The notes under the pieces are model-generated. The model saw only the letters and a program-made list of their open reading frames with translations. It was not told where the DNA came from and made no database searches. The position numbers and the translations under genes are program-made. From Gemmatimonadota bacterium (GTDB lineage: Bacteria; Gemmatimonadota; Gemmatimonadetes; Longimicrobiales; RSA9), in contig JBBDRO010000078.1 in assembly GCA_040905425.1 (NCBI GenBank), positions 65,075 to 96,948 on the forward strand: a stretch of 31,874 nucleotides of DNA, written 5' to 3'. This document shows, piece by piece, positions 11,076 to 30,972 of this stretch (position 1 is the stretch's first letter; the number at the start of each line of letters is the position of its first letter).

Positions 11076-11245
11076 GCGAGCCCGCACTCAATGGTTCCGT
11101 CCGGGCGCTCTCATCTCAGGAAACGTGCCGCGCTCCGCCCGGGCCCGGCGCCGGTAGGCCCGGGCGGCGGGGATGGCCCACCTCCTGATGGCGGAGAGCC
11201 GCGACGCGCCCTACCATGAAGCGTCATCCACCCCCGGAGGTAGCC

Positions 11246-13621
11246 ATGCGTACCCGCGCCCTGCCACTCCTGCTCGCCGCTCTGCTCCTGGCCATGCCGT
11301 CGATCCTCGATCCGGCCACGTCCCTGGCCCGCCCGCTGGCCGCGCAGGAGGTTCCCACGCCGCGCCAGTTCTTCGGCTTCGAGCTCGGGGAGGACCGGCG
11401 CCTGGCCAACTGGACCGAGCTCAGCACCTACTACGCGCGGCTGGCGGAGACCAGCGACCGCGTGCGAGTGGACACGCTGGGCACCACCACCCGGGGCCGG
11501 CCGTTCATCATGCTGACCATCACGAGCGCGGCGAACCATGCCCGGCTCGCGGAGCTGCAGGACGTGCAGCGCAGGCTGGCCGATCCTCGCGACATAGCAG
11601 ATAGCGGGGAGCTGGAGCGCCTGCTGGACGAGGGCCGCACCGTGGCCATGATCACGCACAACATCCACTCCACGGAGGTGGGCGGCGCGCAGGTGGCGGG
11701 GCGGCTGGCGCACCGGCTGGCCAGCTCCAACGAGCCGGACGTCCTGGAGATCCTGGACAACGTGATCCTGTTGCAGATTCCGTCGCTCAATCCGGACGGC
11801 ACCGAGTGGGTCTCGGACTGGTACATGGAGACCGTCGGCGGGCCGTTCGAGGGCACCTCCCCGCCCTGGCTCTACCACTATTACGTGGGGCACGACAACA
11901 ACCGGGACTGGTACGCCTTCACCCAGGACGAGACGGTGCACACCGTGCGGGCGCAGAACGCGTGGCACCCGCAGATCGTGCACGACATCCACCAGATGGG
12001 TGGCGGCGGGGCGCGCATCTTCTTTCCGCCCTACATCGAGCCGTGGGAGCCGAACGTGGACCCGGCGCTCACGGCCGGTGTGAGCCAGCTCGGCTCCTGG
12101 ATGGCGGCCAGCCTGCTCGCGGAGGGCAAGCGCGGCGTGGTCATCAACGCCACCTACGACGCCTTCACGCCCGCGCGCGCCTACATGCACTACCACGGCG
12201 GCGTGCGTATCCTGAGCGAGACGGCCTCAGCCAACCTGGCCTCCCCCACTGACGTCCCCGCCGAACGGGTGCGCGGCGGGCGCAACTACGACGCCGCGCA
12301 GCGGAGCTGGAACTTTCCGGCGCCGTGGGAGGGAGGCCGCTGGGGTCTCCCGGAGATCGTCGCTTACATGGACGCGGGGGCCATGGCCCTGCTGCAGAAC
12401 GCCGCGCGCAACCGCCGGTACTGGCTGGAGAACTTCCACGCCGTCAACCAACGTGCGGTGGAGGGCTGGCCGGAATGGCCGGCCATGTGGGTGATCCCCG
12501 CGCAGCAGGACAACGAGAGCGGACTGGCTTACGTGCTCCGCACGCTCACCCTTGCCGACGTGGAGGTGCATCAGGCGCGTGAGGCGTTCAGTGCTGACGG
12601 GCGCACCTATCCGGCGGGCACGTATGTGGTGCCGATGCGCCAGCCGTATGCCGCTTTCGCGCAGACCATGCTGGAGCGGCAACGCTATCCGGACCTGCGG
12701 GAGTACCCGGGCGGGCCGCCGCTCCGCCCCTACGACGTGACGGCGCACACGCTGCCGCTGCTCATGGACGTGGAGGCGGTGGCCGTGGCGGAGGCGGCGC
12801 TACCGGCGCTACCGGCGCTACCGGCGCTACCGGCGCTACCGGCGCTCTCGGAGCCGATCGCGGAGGTGGACTTCGCGTTCAGCCTGCCGGCTGCGCTGCG
12901 CGGCCCGAACGCGCCGCGCATCGGCTACTACAAGTCGGCGCAGGAGCCCATGGAAGGCGGCTGGACGCGCTGGGTGTTCGACCGGCACGAGCTGGCGTAC
13001 GACACCCTCAAGGACGCGCGGGTGCGCGCGGGTGATCTCGGGCGCAACTACGACGTGATCCTGCTCCAGGCGCAGTCGGGCGGTTCCATCACGCGCGGCT
13101 ACGCGGAGGACTCGCGGCCGGCGGAGTACACGGGCGGCATCGGTGAGGAGGGCGCGGCGGCGCTGCGGGCGTTCGTGGAGGAGGGCGGCAGGATCGTGGC
13201 CGTAGAGGAGGCCACGGAGTTCGTGGCGGAGCTGCTGGGGCTGGCCATCCGGGACGCCGTGGATGACCTGCCCAACACGGACTTCTACGTGCCCGGCTCC
13301 ATCGTGCGGCTGGACCTGGAGCCCGGCCATCCGCTGAGCGCCGGGCTGGACCCGCAGGTGCATGGCTGGTACTGGGGCAGCAGCCGGGCGTTCGCGGTGG
13401 AGGAGCGGCGGGCCGAGGTGGTGGCGCGCTACGGCCCGGACAACCCGGTAGCCTCCGGCTGGATCCTGGGTCCGGAGCACCTGGCGGGGCGCGCGGCGGT
13501 GGTGGAGGCGGCCGTGGGTGAAGGGTCGGTGGTGCTTTTCGGCTTCCAGCCGAACTACCGGGCGCAGACGGTGGCCACCTGGCCGCTGCTCTTCAACGCG
13601 CTGGCGGTGCCGCGGCGGTGA
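11246..13621 (+). CDS. Secreted M14 zinc carboxypeptidase with a C-terminal GATase-like domain
   Basis: GGAGG RBS, signal peptide, HSTE (HxxE), NPDG, DNNRDW, DIHQMG. The C-terminus contains EGGWTRWVF and FVEEGG. Confidence 0.9.
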   Translation: MRTRALPLLLAALLLAMPSILDPATSLARPLAAQEVPTPRQFFGFELGEDRRLANWTELSTYYARLAETSDRVRVDTLGTTTRGRPFIMLTITSAANHARLAELQDVQRRLADPRDIADSGELERLLDEGRTVAMITHNIHSTEVGGAQVAGRLAHRLASSNEPDVLEILDNVILLQIPSLNPDGTEWVSDWYMETVGGPFEGTSPPWLYHYYVGHDNNRDWYAFTQDETVHTVRAQNAWHPQIVHDIHQMGGGGARIFFPPYIEPWEPNVDPALTAGVSQLGSWMAASLLAEGKRGVVINATYDAFTPARAYMHYHGGVRILSETASANLASPTDVPAERVRGGRNYDAAQRSWNFPAPWEGGRWGLPEIVAYMDAGAMALLQNAARNRRYWLENFHAVNQRAVEGWPEWPAMWVIPAQQDNESGLAYVLRTLTLADVEVHQAREAFSADGRTYPAGTYVVPMRQPYAAFAQTMLERQRYPDLREYPGGPPLRPYDVTAHTLPLLMDVEAVAVAEAALPALPALPALPALPALSEPIAEVDFAFSLPAALRGPNAPRIGYYKSAQEPMEGGWTRWVFDRHELAYDTLKDARVRAGDLGRNYDVILLQAQSGGSITRGYAEDSRPAEYTGGIGEEGAAALRAFVEEGGRIVAVEEATEFVAELLGLAIRDAVDDLPNTDFYVPGSIVRLDLEPGHPLSAGLDPQVHGWYWGSSRAFAVEERRAEVVARYGPDNPVASGWILGPEHLAGRAAVVEAAVGEGSVVLFGFQPNYRAQTVATWPLLFNALAVPRR
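12795..12846 (+). repeat. In-frame 9-bp tandem repeat (CGGCGCTAC) x5.8 encoding (ALP)5
   Basis: Five perfect units plus 7 nt, read directly from the sequence. Confidence 0.95.
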
Positions 13622-13712
13622 TCATTGCGTTGGCGGCCGGCAGGGCCGATAGTGGGGGGGCTTTGCTTCGGCCAGACTACGGCGCATCCAACCGCCTATC
13701 GGGAGTTCCACC

Positions 13713-15509
13713 ATGCAGGCACGAATCGCCACGGGCATCGTAGTCACGCTCGTCCTTCTGGGGACGGGCGCCATGGCGTACCGCACGCTCGCCGCGCCCG
13801 CGCTGGTGGCGCCGGAGGCCCCCGGAGCGTATGGGTTCCGGCCTGGTGAGTTGGCCCACGACTTCAATTTTCGAACGGTGGATGGTACGCGTGGGCGGCT
13901 CTCCGGCTTGCTGGAGGAGCACCGCGCGGTGGTGGTGGTGATGCGCACCACCGAGTGCCCCGTGTCCAGGCAGTACGGTCACCGGCTGGCGGAGCTGGAG
14001 CGCGCCTATGCCGAGCGCGGCGTGGCCTTCCTCTACCTGAACGCCAGCCCGCAGGATACGCCCGACAAGATTCGTGAGGACATTGCCACCTTCGACCTGG
14101 CGGGTCCCTACGTGGCGGACCCGGACGGGGAGATCGCCACCCTCCTGCAGGCGGAGGTGAGCACGGAGGTGTTCATCATCGATGCCGCCCGCACGCTGCG
14201 CTACCGCGGGGCCGTGGATGACCAGTTCGGCATCAGCTTCGCCAAGCCCGAGCCGCGCGAGCACTACCTGGTGGCGGCGCTGGACGCCGTGCTCGACGAG
14301 CGCCCCGTGGCTGTGTCCGAGACGGAGGCCTCCGGCTGCTATCTGGAGCTGGCCGCCCAGCAGACGGCGCTGGTACCGGAGCGGCCCGTCACGTATCACG
14401 AGCGCGTGGGACGGATCATCCAGGAGAACTGCGTGAGCTGCCACCGCGCGGGGGGCGTGGCCCCCTTCTCACTCGAGACGTACGAGGACGTCTACGGCTT
14501 CCGGGGCATGGTGAGGTTCGTGCTGGAGGAGGGACGCATGCCGCCCTGGTTCGCCAACCCGGAGCACGGCGCCTTCCGCAACGATCCATCCCTCCCGGAG
14601 CGGGATCGGCGCGACGTGCTCGCGTGGCTCGAGGCGGGCGCGCCCGCGGGGGATCCCGGCGCCGCGCCCCGGCCGCTGGTATGGGTGGATGGGTGGCAGC
14701 TCGGGCGGGAGCCGGACGCCGTCGTGGAGCTGCCGGAACCGCAGGACGTGCCGGCCAGCGGGGTGGTGGACTACCGCTACATCTTCGTGAAGACGGACTT
14801 CCAGGAGGACCGGTGGATCCGGCAGATCGAGGCACGGCCGACCGCCCCCCAGGTCACCCACCACGTCATTGCCTATCTGCAGGGCCCCGATGACGAGGGG
14901 CGCGGGGCCTGGCTCGGCGCCACGGCGCCCGGCGTGCCGGCCAACGTCTTCCCTGACGGTACGGCCAAGCGCCTGCCCGCGGGCGCGTGGATCATGTTCG
15001 AGGTGCACTACACGCCGAACGGCACCGCCACCCGGGACCAGACCCGCCTGGGCCTGGTCTTCGCGGACGGCCCGCCGGTGCGGGAGGTGGAAACCACCTC
15101 CGTATCCACCACGCGCTTTGCGATTCCACCCGGCGCCGCGAACCACGAGGTGGTTGCCCGCCGCGGCTTCGAGCGCGCGGGCAGCATCACGGCCATGCTC
15201 CCGCACATGCACGTGCGCGGCAAGGCCTTCCGCTACGAGGTGGAGCGCACGGACGGGACCCGGGAGATCCTCCTGGACATCCCCCGCTACGATTTCAACT
15301 GGCAGCTCTTCTACGAACCCGCCGAGCCCGTCCACGTGGCCCCGGGCGACGAGCTGGTGGGCTACGCCTGGTACGACAACAGCGCCGGCAACCCGGCCAA
15401 CCCCGATCCCACCGCCACGGTACGCTTCGGTGAGCAGACCTTCGAGGAGATGATGTTCGGCTTCTTCGACTTCGTACCGGACGAGCCGCTGGCGGCGCGC
15501 GGCGGCTGA
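13713..15509 (+). CDS. Exported redoxin + cytochrome c + copper type II (PHM/DBH-like) monooxygenase fusion
   Basis: N-terminal signal/anchor. Redoxin segment (ECPVS, YRGAVDDQF, SGC). Heme motif CVSCH plus MPPW. Copper ligand motifs THHV, EVHY, PHMH and EEMM, plus YDFNWQ. Confidence 0.85.
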   Translation: MQARIATGIVVTLVLLGTGAMAYRTLAAPALVAPEAPGAYGFRPGELAHDFNFRTVDGTRGRLSGLLEEHRAVVVVMRTTECPVSRQYGHRLAELERAYAERGVAFLYLNASPQDTPDKIREDIATFDLAGPYVADPDGEIATLLQAEVSTEVFIIDAARTLRYRGAVDDQFGISFAKPEPREHYLVAALDAVLDERPVAVSETEASGCYLELAAQQTALVPERPVTYHERVGRIIQENCVSCHRAGGVAPFSLETYEDVYGFRGMVRFVLEEGRMPPWFANPEHGAFRNDPSLPERDRRDVLAWLEAGAPAGDPGAAPRPLVWVDGWQLGREPDAVVELPEPQDVPASGVVDYRYIFVKTDFQEDRWIRQIEARPTAPQVTHHVIAYLQGPDDEGRGAWLGATAPGVPANVFPDGTAKRLPAGAWIMFEVHYTPNGTATRDQTRLGLVFADGPPVREVETTSVSTTRFAIPPGAANHEVVARRGFERAGSITAMLPHMHVRGKAFRYEVERTDGTREILLDIPRYDFNWQLFYEPAEPVHVAPGDELVGYAWYDNSAGNPANPDPTATVRFGEQTFEEMMFGFFDFVPDEPLAARGG

Positions 15510-15510
15510 C

Positions 15511-16230
15511 ATGAAAATACTCGTAATCGATGATGACCCGCTCATCGTGGAATTCGTCCGGCGCGGCCTGGCCGAGGACGGCTACACCGTGGACTCCGCC
15601 GGTACCGGCAGCGAGGGGCTGTATTGCGCGCACATCAACAAGTATGACGCCATCATCCTGGACATCAACCTGCCGGACACCAGTGGCATAGCCATCGCCG
15701 AGGGCCTGCGCGCGGAGGGAGACGCAACGCCCATCGTCATGCTGACCGCCCGCTCGGGCACCGACAATGTGGAGCAGGGGCTGGACGCCGGCGCCGACGA
15801 CTACCTGACCAAGCCGTTCGACCTGCGCGAGTTGCGGGCCCGCCTGCGCGCGGCCACGCGCCGCGGCGGAGCCACGCGCACCGAAGAGTTGATCATCGGC
15901 GCACTCACGCTGAACCGCATCAACCACGACGTACGCGTTGGTGAGCGACCGTTGCGCCTCACCCCCACGGAGTACCGCCTGCTCGAGTATTTCATGCTGC
16001 GCGCGGGGGCCATCGTGTCCCGCACCGAGCTGCTCGAGAAGGTCTGGGAGATGCACTTCGATCCACAGTCGAACATCGTGGACGTGCATGTGGCGCGGCT
16101 ACGCGGGAAGATCAAGGGGAAGAAAGGGGTCCCGGAGCTGGAAACGGTGCGGGGCTTCGGCTTCCGGCTGCCGGAGGAGGCGGAGGTGGCGGAAGTGGCG
16201 GAGGAGGAGGAGAAGCCGGAGGAGGCGTGA
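15511..16230 (+). CDS. OmpR/PhoB family response regulator, CusR/CopR-like
   Basis: REC domain (DDD, LDINLP, GADDYLTKPF) and winged helix VWEMHFDPQSNIVDVHVARLRGKI...TVRGFGF. Starts 1 nt after the upstream stop. Confidence 0.93.
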   Translation: MKILVIDDDPLIVEFVRRGLAEDGYTVDSAGTGSEGLYCAHINKYDAIILDINLPDTSGIAIAEGLRAEGDATPIVMLTARSGTDNVEQGLDAGADDYLTKPFDLRELRARLRAATRRGGATRTEELIIGALTLNRINHDVRVGERPLRLTPTEYRLLEYFMLRAGAIVSRTELLEKVWEMHFDPQSNIVDVHVARLRGKIKGKKGVPELETVRGFGFRLPEEAEVAEVAEEEEKPEEA

Positions 16231-16246
16231 GGCAGGGCTCGGCGGG

Positions 16247-16657
16247 CTAGGAGTTCGCCGCCACGACCTGTGTTACGAGGTAGCGGCCGCCGTCCGGCAT
16301 GCCAACCTGACCGGCCGTATCAAAGCGCGCGGGGATCCCCGGCGTCATCGTGGCGGTGAGCTGCCGCCGCTCCAGCCGCAAACCGTCCGCCGCCGGCGTC
16401 CAGATCAGCGTCGGGGCCGTGCTCGGTGCCCCGGCGGGGTCGCTGGCGCGCACCACGATTGTTTCCCGTAGAACCCGCGTGTTCAGCGCGGCTGGGGCCG
16501 TATCCGCCACCCGCAGCGCCCCGGCTTCCATGCTCACGTCGATCCGCACCGCCTCCAGCGGCTCCACGATCACGGCCGAAGCCGTGATGGTGTGCTGCGC
16601 CGCCGCACCCGTAGCCGTCAGGGTGGTGAGCGCCAGCGCAAGTGCGAATCCGCGCAA
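16247..16657 (-). CDS. Secreted beta-rich protein, degenerate DUF4402/pilin-like subunit
   Basis: GGAG-8 nt-TTG, signal peptide ending AAA|Q, N-terminal TITASAVIVEPL, C-terminal GGRYLVTQVVAANS. Confidence 0.65.
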   Translation of the reverse strand: MRGFALALALTTLTATGAAAQHTITASAVIVEPLEAVRIDVSMEAGALRVADTAPAALNTRVLRETIVVRASDPAGAPSTAPTLIWTPAADGLRLERRQLTATMTPGIPARFDTAGQVGMPDGGRYLVTQVVAANS

Positions 16658-16701
16658 AATGGGATCTCCGTGGGCGAGAATCGGTCAGGATGCCACGACA
16701 A

Positions 16702-16719
16702 CATTACAACCTTGTAATG
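16702..16719. promoter_or_regulatory. Cop/CusR-box-like inverted repeat
   Basis: CATTACAA-CC-TTGTAATG with perfect 8-bp arms, 44 nt upstream of the start at 16657. Overlaps the CPBP stop codon. Confidence 0.65.
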
Positions 16720-17570
16720 ATTGCGCGCAAGCTCCTTGATTCCCACCACCAGACCACCAGCACCGCCCCGAGGGCCATAAGCACCACCTGGGCCACCCGC
16801 GCCGCCGCGGACATACCGAGCAGCTCGCCGCTGAAGTTGTGCATGAAATGGAGCATGATGACGGCCAGTACGCTGCGGCGTGTACCGTTGTACACCCAGG
16901 CGTAGAGCACGGCGGCGGGCAGGAGGCCGGCCAGGAAGCCGAGCGGCGTGGGGCGGGCAATTTCGAAGACGTCGAAGAAGCCGGGCATCAGGAAGAGGGG
17001 CAGGTGCCAGCTCCACCATACCAGGCCTACCGCCAGGCTGGCGTACAGGGCGCTCCACCGCTCCTGCAGGCGGTCCTGCAGGTAGCCGCGCCAGCCGATC
17101 TCCTCGGGTAGCGGGCCGATCACCAGGATGAAGCCGATCAGGGCCATGAGGCCCATCGGGTCCACGGCGCGCGCGGCGGCGCGCCCCAGGTCGAGCGGCG
17201 GGCCTGCACTGCCCACGAGCGCGGCCAGGCCTCCGGCCAGGAGCGTGAGCAGGGGGAAGAGGAGGAGCGTAACCGCCCACCAGCGGGGGCTGACCCGGCG
17301 CGGATCCACCAGCCGCGGCCCCAGCTCGCGCAGCGCGGCTGGCCCGCCGCTGACCCGGGTCATGACCACGCCGCCGATCATCACGCCGGCGCCCCCCACC
17401 AGGAAGAGGTAGCGCCCCGGCGCCTCCCATACGCTGCCGCCGGCCAGGGAGGCGAGCGCCCAGAAGGCCCAGGTCCAGCCGTGCGAGAACGCCAGGAAGC
17501 CCAGGACGTCGCGGGTCAGGGGCCCGGAAGACGCCCGCGCCGCGCTCACCTTTGGGCCGTGGTCCGCCAT
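16704..17570 (-). CDS. CPBP (CAAX protease/Abi) intramembrane metalloprotease
   Basis: EEIGWRG, WWSWHLP and LHFMHN motifs. TATATT lies 6 nt before ATG 17570, suggesting a leaderless transcript. Confidence 0.9.
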   Translation of the reverse strand: MADHGPKVSAARASSGPLTRDVLGFLAFSHGWTWAFWALASLAGGSVWEAPGRYLFLVGGAGVMIGGVVMTRVSGGPAALRELGPRLVDPRRVSPRWWAVTLLLFPLLTLLAGGLAALVGSAGPPLDLGRAAARAVDPMGLMALIGFILVIGPLPEEIGWRGYLQDRLQERWSALYASLAVGLVWWSWHLPLFLMPGFFDVFEIARPTPLGFLAGLLPAAVLYAWVYNGTRRSVLAVIMLHFMHNFSGELLGMSAAARVAQVVLMALGAVLVVWWWESRSLRAIITRL

Positions 17571-17638
17571 GGCGCGAATATACAGCCGCCCGCCGCCGGG
17601 GCCACGATCCCTGCGACGCGCGTGGGTCACAGCGTCAG

Positions 17639-18142
17639 TCAGTCACGCTCCCGACGCTCGACCTCCGGCGGTGGCGCGTGCGCCGCGGCCGCCTCCACGT
17701 ACGGCCGCGCCGCGTCATGGCGGTAGACCAGCTCGCCGCCCGCAGCGCCCACGGAGACGGCCGCCGCCAGCACGCCGACGGATCCAGCTGTGGCCAGCAG
17801 GCGCCCGGCACTGCCCACCGTGCCGCCGAAGAGGCCCGCACCCGACACCAGCAGCAGGATGCCCGACAGCAGCAGGAAGCGCTCACCCGCCTCCTCGTGC
17901 TCGTGCAGCACGCGTTCCCCGACCACGGCCTCCACGCGGTCCTCCTCGGCCTCCCCCGTGGCCAACGCCACCCACGCCGACGCGGCCAGCGCCGCCGCCA
18001 TGGCCAGGGGAATGGCCCAGGCCCGCATGGGACGCGCGCCGCGGCTGATTGCCAGGAGGGCGCCCAGCGCGAAGATTGGGAGAAGGACGGCCAGTACGAT
18101 GGGGAAGTGGACGATGGCGGGGTGCAGTGGATCTGGCAGCAT
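17639..18142 (-). CDS. DUF2231 family membrane protein (putative heme b-binding)
   Basis: AAGGAG RBS. LHPAIVHFPI, HEHEEAG and GGELVYRH motifs. Four TM helices. Confidence 0.85.
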   Translation of the reverse strand: MLPDPLHPAIVHFPIVLAVLLPIFALGALLAISRGARPMRAWAIPLAMAAALAASAWVALATGEAEEDRVEAVVGERVLHEHEEAGERFLLLSGILLLVSGAGLFGGTVGSAGRLLATAGSVGVLAAAVSVGAAGGELVYRHDAARPYVEAAAAHAPPPEVERRERD

Positions 18143-18201
18143 GGTACGCTCCTTTGTCGAGGTTGCCCTGAATCTGGCCTCGCGGAGGGGCGCCACACCA
18201 T

Positions 18202-18264
18202 CCGACATCCGTAGGGCACGCCTCCCGGAATGCGTTCTGCCCGTGTATCTCCTACGGATGTAGG
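18202..18264. promoter_or_regulatory. Paired inverted operator between divergent genes
   Basis: CCGACATCCGTAGG (18202-18215) and CCTACGGATGTAGG (18251-18264) are 13/14 reverse complements. Each is a CC(T/G)AC-N4-GTAGG pseudo-palindrome. Confidence 0.6.
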
Positions 18265-18272
18265 GAGGCGGG

Positions 18273-18806
18273 ATGGAAGATCTGGCGTCGGGCCGCATGC
18301 GGTTCCTGCTGGCCATTGCTGTGGCCTTCATCATCATCGGCGGCGGCATCGATCTGGTGCTGGATCAGCCGGAGCACTGGCTCAGCTTCCACGTGGTCTT
18401 CGAGGCCATGATGATCACCGGTGCACTGCTCATTGCCACCACGCTGTGGCTGGGCTGGTGGCGGAGCGTGCACTCGGTACGGCAGCTGCGCCTCTCGCTG
18501 GAACGGCAGGCGGCCGAACGGGATGCCTGGCGGGCGAGCGCGCAGCATGCGCTGCAGGGGTTCGGGCAGGCCATCGACCGCCAGTTCGACGTCTGGGAGC
18601 TCACGCCCGCCGAGCGTGAGGTGGCCCTTCAGCTGCTCAAGGGATACAGCCACAAGGCCATTGCCCGGCGGACGGACCGGGGGGACCAGACCGTCCGCCA
18701 GCACGCCACGTCAGTCTATCGGAAGGCCTCGGTGCGCGGGCGGGCCGAGTTGGCTGCGTTCTTTCTGGATGACCTCATGCTGCCGGTCGCGCACCGCCAA
18801 CGCTAG
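18273..18806 (+). CDS. Membrane-anchored LuxR-type HTH regulator (one-component)
   Basis: Two N-terminal TM helices and a coiled coil, then LTPAEREVALQLLKGYSHKAIA...TVRQHATSVYRK. GGAGG RBS. Confidence 0.9.
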   Translation: MEDLASGRMRFLLAIAVAFIIIGGGIDLVLDQPEHWLSFHVVFEAMMITGALLIATTLWLGWWRSVHSVRQLRLSLERQAAERDAWRASAQHALQGFGQAIDRQFDVWELTPAEREVALQLLKGYSHKAIARRTDRGDQTVRQHATSVYRKASVRGRAELAAFFLDDLMLPVAHRQR

Positions 18807-18818
18807 CGCGCGTCGAGC

Positions 18819-21437
18819 TCACACGTCGGTGGGTGAGGCCCGGCCGGCAACGTGCGGACCACCTTCCGCCCGGCCGGCGTCCCGCCGCGGCACGAGGTGC
18901 AGCGGGGGCACATCCACGAGCAGATCGTTGCCGGCCGCGGGAACCGTGAATTCCAGACTCGCGGGACTGCCCTCGGCACCGAGCGCATCGAGCGAGGAGC
19001 GCGCCACGGCAATCCGATAGCGACCGGGCAGGATACGGCTGACGTAGAACTGGCCGTCGGAGAAGGTGACGGTGGACATGGGGGGGTGCGCACCGTCCAC
19101 GCTGGTGATCTCGAGCGTGAGCCCCGCAACGGTCGGGACGCCCTCCCCCGCGGTCACGCTGCCCGCCAGTTCGCGCGTGCGGACGAGCGGAACGTCCACG
19201 CGCTGTGCCGTGTTCGGCACTGGCCGCACGTACAGCGCGGGCGCGGTGGTGGTCAGGCTGGGATCGGCCGAGCGGGTGGAATCCACGGCCACAGCCGCCA
19301 CGCGATAGGGCTGCAGAGCCCAGGAACGATAGCGGCCATGCTCGTCGGCCACGACGCGCCTGCCGTCCACCAGGAGGTCCGCCGCGGGCACCGGCGTGTC
19401 CCCTGCCGAGAACGCTCCGTCCCCGTCCACGTCCACGAAGACCACCCCGTGCACACCGGCGTACCCCGTGCGGGCGGTCGGCTGGAAGGTGAAACTGGTG
19501 TCCGGGGCCAGTGATACGCTGCCGTTGAAGACGGCCGCGCTGGAGCCTCCGCCGCGAGGGCTGGACACGGCCCGCAGCGTAGTGCCGAAGGAGCCCCGGC
19601 GCGCACTGAAGGTCAGCGAGAGTGCGGGCCGCTGCTGCCCCCGGCTCCACTGCATGGCGGCATTGATCACGGCGTTCGGGGCCGTCTGCATGGACAGGCC
19701 CAGCTCGGCCAGCCGGATGCCGTGCCTGCCGAGGCCGAGCGCATGGCTCAGCATGGGTCGGTACGTGCGCCCGAGTACGTCCACCGGCACCATGAGGGAA
19801 AGGCGGCTGGTGAGCAGGCTCGGGCTGAGGGCGCTCGGCTCGCGGTCGAAGCGCGCTTCCAGGTAGCCGCGGCGAAAGCTGACGGCGGCGTTCAGCCGCC
19901 AGCGCTCGAGGCCGCTCGCCGCGCCGGCTGCCGCGGCGCCGACCCGGAGCTGGGTGAAAGGCTGCCCCTCCGCCTCGAGCCGCTCGTGCCACGTGAGTTC
20001 CGTATCCCAGCGGCGTGTGGAGTCCGGCAGGATCGAGACGGGTCCGAAGCCCGGACGGGACACGCTGCCGCGCAGTTGCGCCCGCGATCCTGCCCGCGGA
20101 AACACGGCCACGGCGCCGCTGTAGAGCGCACCTGGCATGAGCGTCAGCTCGCCGACCGCCCGCTGGCCCGTGGAGATGCTGCCCAGCACGTAGGGGCGCA
20201 GGTGATCGGCCACGGCATCGGCCACATGCTCGGCGCCGCCCCCGATGGTGAGGAAGGCCGTGGCGCCGTAGCGCACGTCCGCATGCGCATAGCGATCGCA
20301 CAGCGCGCCCACGCAGCGGCCGGCGCCCGTGGCGTACTCCAGGCTCCCCGCCGGCAGCATCGACGTGGGCGTCTGGTAGAGCAGCGTGGTGACGACCTCC
20401 TGGCCGGCCGGCCCGTACATGCGGACCTGCACGGGCGTGGCACCCGTGCGCAGTGGCACTGCCACGGCGTCCTGCGCACCGGCGGCCGAGTAGCCGAGCA
20501 GCACGTTGCCCTGGAAGACCTCGTACTCCCAGCCCGCGGGCAGATCGGGCTGCAGCAGCATCTCACCCAGCTCGGGGCCGCGCAGGAAGGGGCGGTTGCT
20601 GATTTCGAAGCCGTTCACGAAGCGCGAGAAGATTCCCGAGGTCACGATCTGGCCGGCGCTCGCCTGCTCGATGTAGCGCGCCGTGGGGAAGACGCGGTGG
20701 TAGCGGAGCGCAACGTCACCGAAGGCCTCCCGCGCGTCACGCCCCGCCGCCAGCGTGAAGCCGGTACTCAGATCCCCGCCCAGCAGCGCGGCGCCGGCCC
20801 GCGCCCGCAGCGTGGTCAGGCGCGCGGGGTCGAGGCCGCTCGTTGCCAGGTCCCAGTCCAGCACGCCGACACCGCTGGCGGACCGATACGGTACCGAATC
20901 GAGCTGTTCACGCCGTTCGCTCATGCGCTGGCGCGCCAGAAGGACGGCGCGGCGCTGCTCCGCCAGGATGGCCTGCTGCCGGGGAAAGGGTACGTCGCGT
21001 GTGAGGGCCAGGGTGAGGCGGGAGAGGTCGAGGGTGGCCTGCGCTTCAAGCAGTAGCTCCAGCCGTTCGACGCGCAGATAGACCTCATCTTCCCGTGCCG
21101 CGACCTCGGCGGGCGCGAGCTGGACCGTGTCACCATCGAGCGTCATGAGCGGCACCGCCGCGTCCAGCACGGCACTGCCGCCACTGATGCTCGGCAGCCG
21201 GATCGAGCTCCCCTCGCGCACCACCTCCAGCCCCAGATGGCGGGCGAGCTGCACCACCGGTACGAGCACGGCTCCAGAGGAATCCACCAGGATGAGTACG
21301 GTGATGGGCGGCAGGCGCTCAGCCGCGAACTCGAGGATGCCCTCCTCGAACGCCGGCTCCTGCGCGATCAGGGCGGACTGCAGGAACGGTAGGGCGCAGA
21401 GCGCGCAAAGCGCCGGCCGCAGCCGACCCCGGATCAC
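18819..21437 (-). CDS. Usher-like outer-membrane pilus assembly protein (872 aa)
   Basis: Signal peptide after GTG 21437. Usher-like middle region (GWEYEVFQGNVLLG...VRMYGPAGQE), long amphipathic beta-strand region and C-terminal Ig-like domains (GVVFVDVDGDG, FSDGQFYVSRILPGRY). Last gene of the pilin/chaperone run. Confidence 0.75.
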   Translation of the reverse strand: MIRGRLRPALCALCALPFLQSALIAQEPAFEEGILEFAAERLPPITVLILVDSSGAVLVPVVQLARHLGLEVVREGSSIRLPSISGGSAVLDAAVPLMTLDGDTVQLAPAEVAAREDEVYLRVERLELLLEAQATLDLSRLTLALTRDVPFPRQQAILAEQRRAVLLARQRMSERREQLDSVPYRSASGVGVLDWDLATSGLDPARLTTLRARAGAALLGGDLSTGFTLAAGRDAREAFGDVALRYHRVFPTARYIEQASAGQIVTSGIFSRFVNGFEISNRPFLRGPELGEMLLQPDLPAGWEYEVFQGNVLLGYSAAGAQDAVAVPLRTGATPVQVRMYGPAGQEVVTTLLYQTPTSMLPAGSLEYATGAGRCVGALCDRYAHADVRYGATAFLTIGGGAEHVADAVADHLRPYVLGSISTGQRAVGELTLMPGALYSGAVAVFPRAGSRAQLRGSVSRPGFGPVSILPDSTRRWDTELTWHERLEAEGQPFTQLRVGAAAAGAASGLERWRLNAAVSFRRGYLEARFDREPSALSPSLLTSRLSLMVPVDVLGRTYRPMLSHALGLGRHGIRLAELGLSMQTAPNAVINAAMQWSRGQQRPALSLTFSARRGSFGTTLRAVSSPRGGGSSAAVFNGSVSLAPDTSFTFQPTARTGYAGVHGVVFVDVDGDGAFSAGDTPVPAADLLVDGRRVVADEHGRYRSWALQPYRVAAVAVDSTRSADPSLTTTAPALYVRPVPNTAQRVDVPLVRTRELAGSVTAGEGVPTVAGLTLEITSVDGAHPPMSTVTFSDGQFYVSRILPGRYRIAVARSSLDALGAEGSPASLEFTVPAAGNDLLVDVPPLHLVPRRDAGRAEGGPHVAGRASPTDV

Positions 21438-21438
21438 G

Positions 21439-22032
21439 TCAATAGACCTGCGTGACGGTGAGTGTGATCGTGGCCGTATACGTTCCGGCGAGCGCGGTGG
21501 GTGGGATCGTGAGTTCGCCACCCACGAAGACGCGCAGCGTGCTCGCGGCGGGCCAGCTGGTGCCGAGGTCGCACGCACCGTTGCCAAGTTCGTTCGCGCA
21601 CACGCGCTGATCGCCCCCCGCGGGATCAAACCCGTTGAGCCCGCAGCCGGATCGCCCGCGGGTGACGCACCAGCCGCCGAACTGGCTACCGCTGAAACTC
21701 ACCGGCAGGGGCGGTGCGGTGGCCGACGTAAGTTCCGTGGGCGTGCTGAGGGCGAACGTCACACCGTGGATGGCCGCCACGTCCAGCCGGTATTCACCGG
21801 ACTGCACGCTGGCACTGGCCTGATCCACGGCGGCCAGCACCGCAACGGTGCGGGCAGCGTTCGGATCCGGCATGAGCGTGCCGAAGGTCAGGTCGCGCGC
21901 GCCCACCGACGTGGGTGAAGCCAGCGGCACGGCAGCGCTGACGGCCACCTGCTGCGCGTGCAGCTCCGGCGCGCGCATGGCGAGCGCCACCGGCAGCAGG
22001 AGGCCGAGCAGGCAGAGCGTGGACGCGCGCAT
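21439..22032 (-). CDS. DUF4402/Csu-like minor pilus subunit with four Cys
   Basis: Signal peptide, DLTFGTL, VFVGGEL and C-terminal AGTYTATITLTVTQVY. Confidence 0.75.
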   Translation of the reverse strand: MRASTLCLLGLLLPVALAMRAPELHAQQVAVSAAVPLASPTSVGARDLTFGTLMPDPNAARTVAVLAAVDQASASVQSGEYRLDVAAIHGVTFALSTPTELTSATAPPLPVSFSGSQFGGWCVTRGRSGCGLNGFDPAGGDQRVCANELGNGACDLGTSWPAASTLRVFVGGELTIPPTALAGTYTATITLTVTQVY

Positions 22033-22038
22033 CGTCGC

Positions 22039-22857
22039 TTATCTCACGTCCAGCGCGCCGGAGACAGGCGGCGCGGTGATGATGTTGGACTGGCCGAGCT
22101 CGGGCCGCTCCGTCTCGAAGGTGTAGCGCACACGCGCTGCGCCGGGCACATCGGCGAAGACGAAGCGCCGGCGCAGCTCGTAGTAGACGGCCACCACGTC
22201 CACCTCCTCGGCGATCACGCTGCCCGCCGCGTCGAGTAGCTCAACGCGCACGCGGCCCAGGTAGGCGGCGGCGCCGGTGCGTGCCATGTCGAGGGTCAGC
22301 TGGACGCCCCCGTCCGTCCGCACGGCCGCCGCCGAGTCCACGCGGATGCCCGTGACGGGCTGGCCCTTCCGATAGCTCAGCGACGCCACCACGATGGTGC
22401 GCATGGAAATGGCCACCCGCACGTCCGGCTGCACCTGCTGCTCCACCGGCGGTCTGCCGCCGGTGGCGGTCACGAGCACGCGCGACCAGTACTCGCCATC
22501 GGCCAGGTCGGCCGGCGGCTGGGCCAGGATGCGGACCACCTGCTGCTGGCCCGGCTGCAACACGAGCCGGCGCGGAAAGGCCCGCAGCCATGACACCGCG
22601 GCCGGCGCGTCGGCGGGCGCCTCTGCGGTGAGCGGTACCGTCACCACGCCGGCCGAATCGGACTGCGGGTAGCCGAACGCAAAGGAGATGTCGATCTCCT
22701 CGGGCAGCGGGTTGGGATTGTAGAGCGTGATGGTGCCCGCGCGCGTGCTGTGATCCAGGAATACGGCCATGGGGCTCACGGACACCGCGCGCACCACTGC
22801 TGTGGTCGCGGCGCCTAGCGCCAGAGCCAACACCGCCGTCGTCACATACCTGCGCAT
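22039..22857 (-). CDS. PapD-like periplasmic pilus chaperone
   Basis: VSVSPMAVFL, TITLYN and FPRRLVLQPGQQQVVRI...LADGEYWSRV. GAGGTG RBS before ATG 22857. Confidence 0.85.
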   Translation of the reverse strand: MRRYVTTAVLALALGAATTAVVRAVSVSPMAVFLDHSTRAGTITLYNPNPLPEEIDISFAFGYPQSDSAGVVTVPLTAEAPADAPAAVSWLRAFPRRLVLQPGQQQVVRILAQPPADLADGEYWSRVLVTATGGRPPVEQQVQPDVRVAISMRTIVVASLSYRKGQPVTGIRVDSAAAVRTDGGVQLTLDMARTGAAAYLGRVRVELLDAAGSVIAEEVDVVAVYYELRRRFVFADVPGAARVRYTFETERPELGQSNIITAPPVSGALDVR

Positions 22858-22869
22858 GTTCACCTCTGT

Positions 22870-23349
22870 TCAGTTTCCCGTCTGGACAACCATCATCACA
22901 ATGGTGGCCGTGTACGTGCCCACCGGCTGCCCCGGCGGCGGCTGGGCCTGACCACCCAGGTAGATACTGGCAACGGTATGGGCCGGGTTGAACCGTACCT
23001 CCGTGCCGACCGCCGGATCGAACGCCGTGAGGCTGTTCTTGAAGTCGAGCAGTCCGTCAGCGGCGCCGAACAGGAGCGGGATCGCGTCGCCGCCCGGACC
23101 GATCAGCTCATCCGGCAGTTGAAACGTGATGCTGAAGCTTCCACGACCTTCGATCGTGAGCTGGGCCCGGCGTGTCGGGTCGGTGGCCGGCACCGCGGCC
23201 GCCACGCCCGGCGTCAGCAGCCCGAACTGCAGGTTCTGATCGGAGGTGACCAGCAGTTGCTGTGCGCCCAGGCCGGCCGGAGCCGCAAGCAGTGAAGCCG
23301 CGAGCGCCCCAAGCGCCAACCACGCCCCCCGCTCGACTCCTGGCCTCAT
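22870..23349 (-). CDS. DUF4402/Csu-like minor pilus subunit (alternative start 23367)
   Basis: Signal peptide, NLQFGLL, IYLGGQA and C-terminal VGTYTATIVMMVV. Confidence 0.8.
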   Translation of the reverse strand: MRPGVERGAWLALGALAASLLAAPAGLGAQQLLVTSDQNLQFGLLTPGVAAAVPATDPTRRAQLTIEGRGSFSITFQLPDELIGPGGDAIPLLFGAADGLLDFKNSLTAFDPAVGTEVRFNPAHTVASIYLGGQAQPPPGQPVGTYTATIVMMVVQTGN

Positions 23350-23387
23350 CGCAACCTTCCTGTGCATGCTATCAATCTATAGACAAT

Positions 23388-23425
23388 CCGCCGGCGACAC
23401 ACCGTCATCGGTGTGCCGCCGGCGG
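23388..23425 (-). terminator. Hairpin after pilin copy 1, weak U-tract
   Basis: 17-bp stem with a 4-nt loop, followed on the minus strand by AUUGUCU. Confidence 0.65.
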
Positions 23426-23437
23426 GGGAGAGCGCCG

Positions 23438-23938
23438 CTAGCTGCGGGCGTCGACCCGGATGTCCAGGGTGGCGCTGTAGGAATCCGCCACGGCGGCGGA
23501 GGCGGCCGCGGCCGTGATCGTGCCGCCGAAGCCCAGCGTGCCGGCCGTCAGGCCCGTGCCCACGTCCAGGTCAAAGGTCTGGGTGCCGCATACCACCGGG
23601 GTGGTCCACGTGCCGCTCATCTCCCAGGCGCACGTCAGCTCGACCGGCAGCGTGTTGGTCGGATCGGTGCCCACCAGCTGGGTGGGAACGTTGCTGAAGG
23701 TCACGGTGATGTCCCGGTTGAAGGACAGGGCCCGCGTGGTGGTGCCGTCCGTGGCCGAGATCACGTTGTCCGTGGCGCGGCTCAGCGTACCGAAGGGCAG
23801 ATCGCCCGTGCCGCTGATGTCCATGTACCCCGCCACGGTGGCAGTGGCCGTCACCTGGCTGTTCTGGTTCTGCGCGTCCACCGCCATCGGGAATGCCAGC
23901 ATCGTCACCAGCGCCGTGAGCATTGCCTTCTTCATCAT
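23438..23938 (-). CDS. Probable major pilus subunit, copy 1 (166 aa, DUF4402/Csu-like)
   Basis: GAGGAGG RBS, signal peptide ending VDA|Q, N-terminal strand SQVTATATVAG, DLPFGTL, two Cys, GFGGTIT and C-terminal ADSYSATLDIRV. Confidence 0.8.
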   Translation of the reverse strand: MMKKAMLTALVTMLAFPMAVDAQNQNSQVTATATVAGYMDISGTGDLPFGTLSRATDNVISATDGTTTRALSFNRDITVTFSNVPTQLVGTDPTNTLPVELTCAWEMSGTWTTPVVCGTQTFDLDVGTGLTAGTLGFGGTITAAAASAAVADSYSATLDIRVDARS

Positions 23939-23991
23939 GACCGCCTCCTCGAAAATGTCCGCTCGGTTTCTGTCCCGTCTTTCTGAATCGA

Positions 23992-24046
23992 AAGGTAGGG
24001 GATGCACCATGACGGCAGCGTGAACGAAGTGTTACAGCGCCGTAAG
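23992..24046 (-). promoter_or_regulatory. OmpR/PhoB-type phased promoter of pilin copy 1
   Basis: Minus strand reads CTTAC-N6-GTAAC-N6-TTCAC-N6-GTCAT-N11-TACCTT, an 11-bp periodic array before a -10-like hexamer. Confidence 0.55.
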
Positions 24047-24113
24047 GTGCTAGAAGTGGTTGCGGTGGAGGGCTTTACGGATGGGGGCGAATGCGCCCGG
24101 GAGGGGTTGATCC

Positions 24114-24160
24114 AAAGAAAATCCGCCGCCGGCACACCGTCATCAGTGTGCCGCCGGCGG
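24114..24160 (-). terminator. Intrinsic terminator after pilin copy 2
   Basis: Same hairpin as copy 1 with substitutions, followed on the minus strand by AUUUUCUUU. Confidence 0.7.
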
Positions 24161-24172
24161 GGGGAGGCGCCG

Positions 24173-24673
24173 CTAGCTGCGGGCGTCGACCCGGATGTCC
24201 AGGGTGGCGCTGTAGGAATCCGCCACGGCGGCGGAGGCGGCCGCGGCCGTGATCGTGCCGCCGAAGCCCAGCGTGCCGGCCGTCAGGCCCGTGCCCACGT
24301 CCAGGTCAAAGGTCTGGGTGCCGCATACCACCGGGGTGGTCCACGTGCCGCTCATCTCCCAGGCGCACGTCAGCTCGACCGGCAGCGTGTTGGTCGGATC
24401 GGTGCCCACCAGCTGGGTGGGAACGTTGCTGAAGGTCACGGTGATGTCCCGGTTGAAGGACAGGGCCCGCGTGGTGGTGCCGTCCGTGGCCGAGATCACG
24501 TTGTCCGTGGCGCGGCTCAGCGTACCGAAGGGCAGATCGCCCGTGCCGCTGATGTCCATGTACCCCGCCACGGTGGCAGTGGCCGTCACCTGGCTGTTCT
24601 GGTTCTGCGCGTCCACCGCCATCGGGAATGCCAGCATCGTCACCAGCGCCGTGAGCATTGCCTTCTTCATCAT
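24173..24673 (-). CDS. Probable major pilus subunit, copy 2 (identical to copy 1)
   Basis: Identical translation. Overlapping shadow ORFs in other frames are also identical, supporting nucleotide identity. Confidence 0.8.
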   Translation of the reverse strand: MMKKAMLTALVTMLAFPMAVDAQNQNSQVTATATVAGYMDISGTGDLPFGTLSRATDNVISATDGTTTRALSFNRDITVTFSNVPTQLVGTDPTNTLPVELTCAWEMSGTWTTPVVCGTQTFDLDVGTGLTAGTLGFGGTITAAAASAAVADSYSATLDIRVDARS

Positions 24674-24726
24674 GACCGCCTCCTCGAAAATGTCCGCTCG
24701 GTTTCTGTCCCGTCTTTCTGAATCGA

Positions 24727-24781
24727 AAGGTAGGGGATGCACCATGACGGCAGCGTGAACGAAGTGTTACAGCGCCGTAAG
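24727..24781 (-). promoter_or_regulatory. OmpR/PhoB-type phased promoter of pilin copy 2
   Basis: Identical to 23992-24046. Confidence 0.55.
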
Positions 24782-24876
24782 GTGCTAGAAGTGGTTGCGG
24801 TGGAGGGCTTTACGGATGGGGGTCGACCGCGGCCCGGGTGCCATACCTGCTGGCACGGGGTGCGCGCGGCCGGCGT

Positions 24877-30767: not shown

Positions 30768-30972
30768 GGCTGGCGGTGGCTGCAGGATCGGCGCCAAAGG
30801 CAGGTCTGTCCGGCGTGCGCGCAAACGTAGCGGCGGATAACGTATTACGGGCCATGTGTTGAGCCCCGCGCGATTGCCCCTCCCCAGGGGCGCATCTAGC
30901 TTGCCCCGATCACCGCGAGGGAGTCGATCCAGCCCTGGCACCCGGCCCCCGAAAGCGGATGGTTCCACCACG

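Follow-up and report, generated by a model that had tools for sequence, protein, structure and literature searches.

The window analysed here is a stretch of 31,874 nucleotides (69.5% G+C) from a Gemmatimonadota bacterium of the Longimicrobiales (contig JBBDRO010000078.1, positions 65,075 to 96,948). Its nearest relatives are metagenome-assembled genomes (MAGs) of Longimicrobiales and of other Gemmatimonadota. The window carries on the plus strand, at 15511..16230, the gene of an orphan response regulator of the OmpR/PhoB family (239 amino acids, aa) and on the minus strand a six-gene pilus cluster, of which the usher-like gene lies 2.6 kb from the regulator. Next to the regulator stands the gene of a small secreted protein, here called sec136, and the regulator, sec136 and the pilus genes are all found within 9.3 kb. 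Gene order in related genomes and the sequences ahead of the pilin genes suggest that this regulator probably controls the neighbouring pilus cluster.

In the pilus cluster the major pilin is encoded twice, in identical copies; then come a second DUF4402 pilin, a chaperone with the PapD fold, a third DUF4402 protein and an usher-like porin. The gene of the major pilin-like protein, pilA (166 aa), is found at 24173..24673 and, as a promoter-distal copy with identical translation, at 23438..23938; its product aligns with DUF4402 pilins and shows the motifs DL.FG and GG...Y.AT. The other genes are those of a 165-aa pilin-like protein (22870..23367; Pfam DUF4402, 4.8e-05), the 274-aa periplasmic chaperone (22039..22863), a 197-aa pilin-like protein that aligns with the other pilins (21439..22032; DUF4402, 4.8e-07) and the 872-aa usher-like outer-membrane protein (18819..21437), all on the minus strand. 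The two pilA copies belong to a tandem duplication of two 735-nt units (23375..24844), each made of a promoter block, pilA and a GC-rich hairpin. Position-by-position comparison showed that 23432-24087 and 24167-24822 are 100% identical over 656 nt, and the second copy of pilA lies within this stretch. The hairpin, of about 38 nt, directly follows each pilA copy (23388-23425 and 24123-24160), with no T-run in the terminator scan, and may, as an attenuator or terminator, determine how much major pilin is made relative to the products of the downstream genes. In two related loci introduced below, L003 and L008, pilA with its own block is also present in two copies, and this promoter-plus-pilin duplication is thus recurrent in the clade.

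Profile searches of the chaperone, the usher and the pilins against the PDB returned nothing meaningful. The chaperone showed no Pfam PapD match and no PDB profile match, and the usher-like protein no Pfam Usher match and no PDB sequence match. The AlphaFold2 (AF2) model of the chaperone, built on a 16-sequence alignment, reached a predicted local distance difference test score (pLDDT) of 80.8, and Foldseek placed CsuC, EcpB, Caf1M, CfaA, FimC and PapD among its top matches, with a probability of 1.00 and E-values of about 1e-7 to 1e-5; rank 1 was an Enterococcus WxLIP protein, and the template modelling (TM) scores by target were 0.38-0.56. In the nearest Atlas clusters PapD_N is present in 39-46% of the members. 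By its predicted fold only, this protein is a PapD-like chaperone with two immunoglobulin (Ig) domains. The ESM Atlas model of the usher (predicted TM score, pTM, 0.63) aligns with two PF00577 usher clusters at TM 0.53-0.57 over 536-559 residues, and its C-terminal domain is CarboxypepD_reg/SdrD_B-like, the CarboxypepD_reg match being weak. Its 53 homologs come mostly from Gemmatimonadota/Longimicrobiales MAGs, and one of them, P0002, is 74% identical.

Among the pilins of the family a DUF4402 match was found in 13 of 17 and a match to SCPU (PF05229) in 2 of 17, the best of the latter at E 0.027, below cutoff; an assignment to the archaic (sigma, Csu-type) clade by SCPU pilins was therefore rejected. 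The archaic Csu and CupE pili share with the window a two-Ig-domain chaperone (CsuC takes Foldseek ranks 2, 4 and 5), a late position of the usher gene and several small pilins whose C-terminal strand includes a Y. They differ from the window, in which the pilins are of the DUF4402 type, the usher and the chaperone have no Pfam usher or PapD match and the usher carries a CarboxypepD_reg/SdrD_B-like domain. In the literature searched, neither DUF4402 nor PF14352 is mentioned. An earlier note on this DNA had named a non-classical chaperone-usher pilus, and that name holds by structure, through the chaperone fold and the usher model, not by sequence; a fair description from these models would be a DUF4402-type, structurally chaperone-usher-like system.

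The regulator has an N-terminal receiver (Pfam Response_reg, 1.4e-29, 103 bits) and a C-terminal winged helix (Trans_reg_C, 2e-24, 85.9 bits), both above cutoff, which is the domain order of the OmpR/PhoB family; the OmpR-family protein of the earlier note is thus present, with the helix quoted there, VWEMHFDPQSNIVDVHVARLRGKI. It shares 41% identity with CusR and 40% with HprR of E. coli. The model TIGR01387 (CusR/CopR/SilR/CzcR) gave the highest full-length score, 197.6 bits against a cutoff of 279.2, followed within 14 bits by MtrA (186.3), PhoB (184.9) and CseB (184.0). With the DNA-binding domain alone, CseB (81.6 bits) and PhoB (77.7) were above TIGR01387 (68.3). In a 12-row tree with six E. 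coli references only, the regulator falls in a separate Gemmatimonadota clade, with support of 72/66 at the deep forks, and does not group with CusR and HprR. The likeness of the winged helix to CusR/CopR, on which the note had built a copper-type regulator, is then a generic one, and neither the scores nor the phylogeny, which had been suggested as a check against the CusR, PhoB and QseB types, place the protein in the heavy-metal subfamily. Its resemblance to CusR-type function would be a loose one, resting on the box described below and not on the protein. The acidic C-terminal tail of the regulator (EEAEVAEVAEEEEKPEEA) is encoded by four overlapping repeats spaced by 9 nt (16169-16222) and is absent from all five orthologs presented next.

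For comparison, 38 usher homologs were aligned, and the alignment was used to collect 46 loci from species-representative genomes (flanks of up to 10 kb), with which the proteins of the window were compared by tblastn. Eight loci (L003-L010) form a close clade, with ushers 43-60% identical to that of the window; five of them (L003, L005, L007, L008 and L010) extend at least 1 kb past the usher gene and are informative, while in L004, L006 and L009 the contig stops just past it and says nothing on the position of a regulator. Of the 38 loci that are more distant, 29 likewise extend 1 kb or more beyond the usher gene. In all five informative close loci the usher gene is directly followed by a full-length regulator ortholog, 62-78% identical, convergent to it and within about 0.05-0.75 kb, and no OmpR-family regulator was found past the usher in any of the 29 distant ones. 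Four of the five orthologs keep the recognition helix FDPQSNIVDVHVARLR unchanged, and the helix of L010, FDPHSNIVDAHVTRLR, is the most diverged. In the window the outer flanks are replaced: the LytS/LytTR genes, the gene of a 267-aa protein and sec235 are missing, and OAD and redoxin genes stand in their place. Judged from these gene orders, the link between regulator and pilus, which the earlier note had expected to recur in relatives, is real, is confined to one Longimicrobiales subclade and was kept in the window despite the replaced flanks.

No kinase gene flanks the regulator in the window, as had been noted before, nor does one flank the five orthologs. A truncated kinase with HAMP and HisKA domains is encoded 14.6 kb from the regulator; its best NCBIfam match is TIGR01386, heavy-metal sensor kinase (44.4 bits), and it is a possible partner of the orphan regulator. 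This kinase gene, cut by the window end, adjoins the gene of a 447-aa protein on the minus strand with a C-terminal cupredoxin/amicyanin-like domain, both lying within 29670-31872.

The core TTAC-N6-GTAA, a pattern chosen after looking at the sequence, has three matches in the window against 0.01 expected, a number (at least 3) reached in none of 100 shuffles; under a stricter null of local 114-nt composition, 0.056 would be expected. Site 1, CATTACAACCTTGTAATG (16702..16719), is a perfect 8+2+8 palindrome, CATTACAA-CC-TTGTAATG, whose end lies 44 nt upstream of the sec136 start codon; it overlaps the stop codon of the CPBP protease gene and lies 472 nt beyond the regulator stop codon. Sites 2 and 3, both GTTACAGCGCCGTAAG (24031-24046 and 24766-24781), are found within the pilA promoter blocks, each 92 nt ahead of the start codon (ATG) of one of the identical pilA genes. 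The count and positions given earlier are right, but since sites 2 and 3 belong to the 100%-identical tandem duplication, only two sites are independent. Likewise, the statement that each site precedes a pilin-like gene is correct for sites 2 and 3 at pilA, whereas site 1 precedes sec136, for which no homology to pilins was detected. No sigma-70 consensus promoter was found at site 1 or at the pilin sites, which fits a dependence on an activator.

Scanning all 31,857 positions of the window with the full 16-position box gave site 1 as the sole match with 0 mismatches, none with 1-5 and 14 with 6. The hprR-hiuH spacer of E. coli K-12 holds CATTACAA-AA-TTGTAATG, to which site 1 is equal in 16 of 16 arm positions; we take this 18-mer to be the HprR box, which Urano et al. 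are said to have defined in 2017. The cusR-cusC spacer of E. coli K-12 holds AAAATGACAATTTTGTCATTTT, from which site 1 differs at one position per arm. HprR binds the hprR-hiuH spacer and recognises the same sequence as CusR (PMC8249747). In Pseudomonas, CusR, CopR and CzcR share the palindrome ATTCATnnATGTAAT, with CTGACAn5GTAAT for CopR and GAAACn6GTAAT for CzcR, and these boxes have a variable first half and the common second half-site GTAAT (PMC11195947). The inverted repeat given for CusR/CopR/PcoR boxes in the earlier note agrees in form with these published CusR, CopR and CzcR boxes, and site 1 is a palindrome of the same type. A box of the type ATKACAA-N2-TTGTMAT is thus present near the regulator gene in the window, and among the relatives a perfect palindrome is found only in L010, at pilA. 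A reading of site 1 as a CopY/CopR repressor box was discarded, as that box is TACAnnTGTA (PMC7253601) and site 1 has TACA-N4-TGTA.

Site 1 could instead have a different role, either as an RNA hairpin that closes the CPBP transcript at its 3' end or as an operator for some other factor, for instance of the LuxR type, with the E. coli match due to chance. The folding energy of the region is -19.4 kcal/mol (z = -2.17), a value also reached in 7 of 200 shuffles; moreover, the site shares bases with the CPBP stop codon and borders a three-gene block, specific to the window, that includes a LuxR-type regulator. We consider this explanation the most improbable of those weighed here: no T-run follows the site and the terminator scan gave 0 matches, the region upstream of the LuxR-type gene has a different inverted repeat (CATCCGTAGG...CCTACGGATG), and site 1 agrees in 16 of 16 positions with a documented type of box, being unique in the window with no neighbour at 1-5 mismatches.

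In the relatives, the exact core TTAC-N6-GTAA has no match in the 602,886 nt of the 46 loci. A relaxed form, TKAM-N6-GTMA, is found at the homologous position in all 11 available pilA promoters, where it is part of a conserved block; conservation of the motif, proposed with the earlier note as a check, thus fails for the exact core and holds for the relaxed form. The block spans about 60 nt and has 16 invariant columns in an alignment of 10 major-pilin upstream regions, with the consensus (A/G)TGAACGNGCTGTAA(C/T)-N5-GTTCACGATTC(C/T)GT(A/C)ATG-N8-CCTAGNTTTCATTCAG. In the window it reads CTTACGGCGCTGTAAC-N5-GTTCACGCTGCCGTCATG-N8-CCTACCTTTCGATTCAG and is present in two identical copies on the minus strand (23983..24046 and 24718..24781), site 2 being the distal element CTTACGGCGCTGTAAC of the first and site 3 lying within the second. 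Its GTAA/GTCA half-sites are 22 bp apart. The pair YYGTMAY-N14-16-YYGTMAY has 12 matches on both strands of 634,760 nt, of which 10 are at pilA promoters, all with N15, and the eleventh pilA promoter misses the pair by one base.

The left half of the elements varies (TGAAC, TTACG, TGACG, TTCAC) and the right half is kept as GTAA(C/T) or GTCAT, similarly to the Pseudomonas boxes. A reading of each element as a degenerate CusR/CopR/CzcR-type box is possible. The pilin promoter of L004 holds ATGAACgtgctGTAAT, comparable to the published boxes with a variable first half and GTAAT. L010 has the perfect palindrome CATGACGA-AA-TCGTCATG at the distal position, with CGTCATG 22 bp downstream, and is the best match of a full-box scan of the close loci (2 mismatches, at pilA); it combines a diverged recognition helix with a diverged block. 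The best of the other full-box matches in these loci, with 3-4 mismatches in coding sequence, were dismissed. Between the end of the proximal element and a conserved TAGATT-like (TAnnTT-like) hexamer there are 10 nt. Block and regulator occur together in six of six loci where both are visible.

The block could also be the core promoter of an extracytoplasmic function (ECF)-like sigma factor, with TGTAAC as the -35 element, a 16-nt spacer and CGTCAT as the -10 element, the TTAC...GTAA core being a chance product of the -35 element and the regulator a neighbour whose targets lie elsewhere. The sequence TGTAAC-N16-CGT(C/A)AT, which presumably resembles ECF promoters, is found in the window, in L003 (twice), L005, L006 and L007 and in copy 2 of L008, and the pilin region has no sigma-70 consensus promoter. 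It is a very improbable account, as L004 and copy 1 of L008 have TGTAAT instead of CGT and L010 has GTCATG instead of an AAC-containing -35 element. In addition, the supposed spacer GTTCACGATT is nearly invariant, which an ECF promoter leaves unexplained, and no sigma or anti-sigma gene was seen among the open reading frames (ORFs) listed for the close loci, not all of which were scanned with Pfam.

In the mechanism that we propose, the regulator would be phosphorylated by a kinase encoded elsewhere and would bind boxes whose best-conserved half is (T/C)GT(A/C)A(T/C), the half-site type of CusR, HprR, CopR and CzcR. One target would be the perfect 8+2+8 palindrome before sec136, a gene that stands right after the usher gene in relatives and would here have been cut off from the pilus operon by a three-gene insertion. 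The other would be the two degenerate boxes 22 bp apart before each major pilin gene, where the regulator may act as a promoter-proximal activator, because the proximal box ends 10 nt before the TAnnTT-like element. The data show which genes are present, the assignment of chaperone and usher at the level of fold, the synteny, the conservation of the promoter block and the equality of site 1 with the E. coli palindrome; we infer the binding of the sites by the regulator, the activation and the belonging of sec136 to the pilus. That the regulator directly controls both the pilin and the sec136 promoters has, in our estimate, about an even chance.

This arrangement has known counterparts. E. coli HprR (YedW) and CusR belong to the same OmpR family, have an 8+2+8 palindromic box and sit next to their target, as the window regulator sits next to its presumed target (PMC8249747). 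The window regulator differs from them by having no adjacent kinase and no metal-efflux or msrPQ-type target, by its recognition helix (QSNIVDVHVARLR against DTNAIDVAVKRLR) and by its presumed targets, which are the genes of a secreted protein and of pilins. The Pseudomonas CopR, CusR and CzcR differ in that they respond to metals, work with cognate kinases and control operons for metal resistance, and their boxes are unlike the two tandem boxes 22 bp apart that precede the pilin gene here. With PhoB and the pho box we presume a further likeness, namely VDVH in the helix, CTGTCAT-type half-sites, the 22-bp phasing and a proximal box 10 nt before a -10-like element; the PhoB model is within 13 bits of the best full-length model and above the heavy-metal model on the DNA-binding domain, but no pst or pho genes are near the window regulator. 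In Burkholderia thailandensis, BfmSR is encoded just past the last gene of csuFABCDE and activates the promoter before the first pilin gene (PMC12124856). The gene neighbourhood and the logic are the same as those proposed here, whereas BfmR is of the NarL/FixJ type with its kinase beside it and Csu/SCPU pilins, and the window has an OmpR-type orphan and DUF4402 pilins.

The principle that a two-component regulator beside an archaic chaperone-usher cluster drives its first promoter is therefore already known from BfmSR-csu, and for this reason what the present case would add is a lineage and a variant of the pilus that are new, while the mechanism is not. The genetics of Gemmatimonadota, a phylum abundant in soils, have hardly been studied. 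If correct, the proposal would give the first testable triplet of regulator, operator and target for the phylum, a handle to switch on a DUF4402-type pilus by means of a phosphomimetic regulator, and a case in which a box of the metal-regulator type is reused for the control of a surface structure. A wider form of it, which we regard as unlikely, would have the HprR/CusR/CopR/CzcR recognition code, in the shape of a common 18-bp palindrome and GTAAT-type half-sites, survive in Gemmatimonadota and be taken over there by an orphan regulator, whose regulon comprises an undescribed DUF4402 branch of chaperone-usher systems and, as pilus accessory subunits, the new family of small secreted sec136 proteins, and would have sec136 regain co-regulation through its own perfect box after the insertion.

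Several observations weigh against direct control of both promoters. The pilin sites have mismatches at 6 of the 16 box positions, tied with 12 other positions of the window that are mostly in coding sequence, and taken alone they are at background. The relaxed pattern TKAM-N6-GTMA was defined after seeing the alignment and is not enriched (25 distinct sites in 634,760 nt, with about 1 expected per 32 kb), and therefore its weight is that of positional conservation only. The geometry at sec136 is awkward, since the box ends 44 nt before the start codon and no recognisable -10 element is present, and this perfect box is found in the window only: ahead of sec136, L005, L007 and L008 have single half-sites at most. 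Moreover, nothing firmly identifies sec136 as a pilus protein; by the comparisons made, it is tied to the pilus by position only. No box was found ahead of the regulator operon in the window (13622-13712), nor in the spacer before the regulator orthologs. In BLASTP the DNA-binding domain of the regulator gave 69.3 bits with BasR, 67.0 with PhoB and 65.9 with CusR; being no closer to CusR than to BasR or PhoB, it does not allow the specificity to be read from homology. In four Gemmatimonadaceae loci (L031, L035, L036 and L039) the block is retained in part, as TGAAC-N17-TCACGATTACGTAC, and the sequence available contains no ortholog of the regulator, from which it follows that part of the block predates the adjacency of the regulator. 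Finally, a LytTR regulator is encoded a few kb upstream of pilA in six relatives (L003, L005, L006, L007, L008 and L010), and CTGTAAC and CCGTCAT of the block are direct repeats: the 9-mers are 13 bp apart in 10 of 11 pilA promoters, and the 22-bp phasing fits LytTR proteins.

A LytTR regulator is the most serious rival for the pilin promoter. Control would then be split: the OmpR-type regulator would act on sec136 only, and the pilA block would be a LytTR-type operator, served by a LytS/LytTR pair encoded elsewhere in the genome of the window. In five of the six relatives a LytS-like kinase gene (Pfam His_kinase, 2.9e-26) stands beside the LytTR gene, the exception being L006, whose contig begins inside the regulator gene. 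The best NCBIfam matches of the LytTR regulator are BtsR (168.9 bits) and LytR (142 bits), both below cutoff. LytTR proteins bind direct repeats with a spacing of 12 bp (range 11-13) that immediately precede the promoter (PMC6193735), and AlgR, a LytTR regulator, is required for the expression of type IV pili (PMC4787818). However, the block is kept in the window with no LytS or LytTR homolog in its 31.9 kb, and L023 has the LytS/LytTR pair with a different pilin promoter that lacks the block. TGAAC and GTTCACGATT, which lie before and between the repeats, are conserved as well and remain unexplained by a pure direct-repeat operator, and the paired repeats do not recur before the lytS-like operon. 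Split control is in our view somewhat unlikely. The pilus cluster in relatives is preceded by the genes of the LytS-like kinase, the LytTR regulator, an S41 C-terminal-processing-peptidase-like protein and a 267-aa protein with a weak DUF4412 match (L003 1995-6182, L007 4231-7017, L008 1837-6015, L010 2218-6807); the S41-like protein is absent from L007, and none of the set is found in the window.

The gene ahead of the regulator bears on the question of the signal. It encodes a 598-aa membrane-anchored redoxin-type protein (13713..15509, plus strand) with an AhpC/TSA-redoxin domain, a CxxCH motif and a weakly Cu2_monoox_C-like C-terminus (AhpC-TSA 5.4e-11, Redoxin 4.1e-09, Cu2_monoox_C 0.002), and its PDB matches cover only the thioredoxin-like part, residues 42-212. 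Its stop codon lies 1 nt before the regulator ATG (junction TGAcATG). The earlier note had the regulator co-transcribed with a cuproenzyme. The spacing of 1 nt agrees with co-transcription; the pair is specific to the window, as no homolog of the redoxin protein was found by tblastn in any of the 46 loci, and the label cuproenzyme is not supported, the Cu2_monoox_C match (18.1 bits) being below the cutoff of 23.

A true copper or oxidative-stress circuit of the CusR/CopR/HprR type, with the pilus switched by Cu or H2O2, would account for site 1 as an E. coli HprR/CusR-type palindrome, for TIGR01387 as the top-scoring full-length model and for a regulator translationally coupled to a periplasmic redoxin/CxxCH protein, maybe with Cu-monooxygenase-like histidines; the truncated kinase, with a heavy-metal sensor family as its best match, also adjoins the cupredoxin protein. 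We judge it improbable: TIGR01387 stays below its cutoff, CseB and PhoB score higher on the DNA-binding domain and the tree gives no grouping with CusR and HprR. No gene for metal efflux, a multicopper oxidase, a periplasmic metal chaperone or a cognate kinase stands beside the regulator in the window or in the five relatives, the redoxin neighbour is absent from 46 of 46 loci, and the protein encoded before the regulator in relatives does not have the composition of a metal-binding one. Copper is thus not indicated as the signal of the proposed OmpR-type control of the pilus.

In the relatives, the regulator gene is preceded by the gene of a secreted Arg/Asp/Gln-rich protein of about 240 aa and then by a hairpin and a TATCAT element. 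The protein (minus strand; L003 13262-13978, L005 9246-9995, L007 13648-14355) has a conserved FCRxGxGHPVxGRxWCRDKG motif and no family match. Before the orthologs, TATCAT, TATGAT or CATAAT lies 7-10 nt ahead of the ATG with the hairpin farther upstream (L003 13153-13261, L005 9137-9245, L007 13551-13647, L008 13895-14046, L010 13203-13499). This spacing suggests a leaderless mRNA for the orthologs; the window copy stands instead 1 nt behind the redoxin gene.

The sec136 gene (16247..16657, minus strand) ends 17 nt from the regulator stop codon and encodes a secreted all-beta protein of 136 aa with no Pfam or NCBIfam match, one of a small family that is as yet uncharacterised. An exhaustive profile search among 1.84 billion sequences gave 38 representatives at E<=1e-3, and a word-based search gave one match only, P0054, with 85% identity. 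An N-terminal SAVIVE-like strand and a C-terminal VTRVIA(S/A)NS of invariant length are conserved in the family, and no Pfam match is shared among 32 of its members. Homologs lie between the usher and the regulator, on the usher strand, in L005, L007 and L008. The AF2 model (pLDDT 72, pTM 0.45) had no PDB fold match at E<=0.001, the best E being 2.2. No homology of sec136 to pilins was detected: hhalign against the pilin alignment gave a probability of 38.7%, covering the signal peptide and first strand only, and against the post-usher pilins of Gemmatimonadaceae a probability of 0.8%. These Gemmatimonadaceae proteins, pilin-like and of 170-176 aa, are encoded directly after the usher gene (L031 10348-10863, L035 11625-12134, L036 12578-13108), which is the position of sec136 in the close clade; one of the three matches DUF4402 (E 0.0016).

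Three genes separate sec136 from the usher gene in the window: those of a CPBP/Rce1-like intramembrane protease (16704..17630, minus strand; Pfam Rce1-like, 8.3e-16), of a DUF2231 membrane protein (17639..18142, minus strand; 1.8e-06), whose start codon was placed from the beginning of the Pfam match at residue 73 of a longer ORF, and of a membrane-anchored LuxR/GerE-type regulator, LIC13292-like (18273..18806, plus strand; GerE 1e-07; NF047608 65.9 bits, below cutoff). As no homolog of any of them was found by tblastn in the 46 related loci, they look like a window-specific insertion between usher and sec136. The divergent spacer between the DUF2231 and LuxR-type genes (18206-18259) holds the 10-bp inverted repeat mentioned above, its arms 34 nt apart, a candidate operator of the LuxR-type regulator.

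Palindromes containing TCCGGA (for example GTCCGGAATCCGGAC and CATCCGGATGCGNATTTCCGG) occur repeatedly in relatives, either in the stretch from the usher to sec136 or before the regulator (L005 7780-7870, L008 12510-12650, L010 13280-13430, minus strand); they may form a repeat family of unexplained nature or serve some other factor as an operator. An Rfam scan of the whole window at the gathering threshold gave 0 matches. Upstream of the redoxin gene, at 11216-13621, the window encodes an 801-aa M14 carboxypeptidase-like protein with a run of PAL tripeptide repeats (PALPALPALPALPAL).

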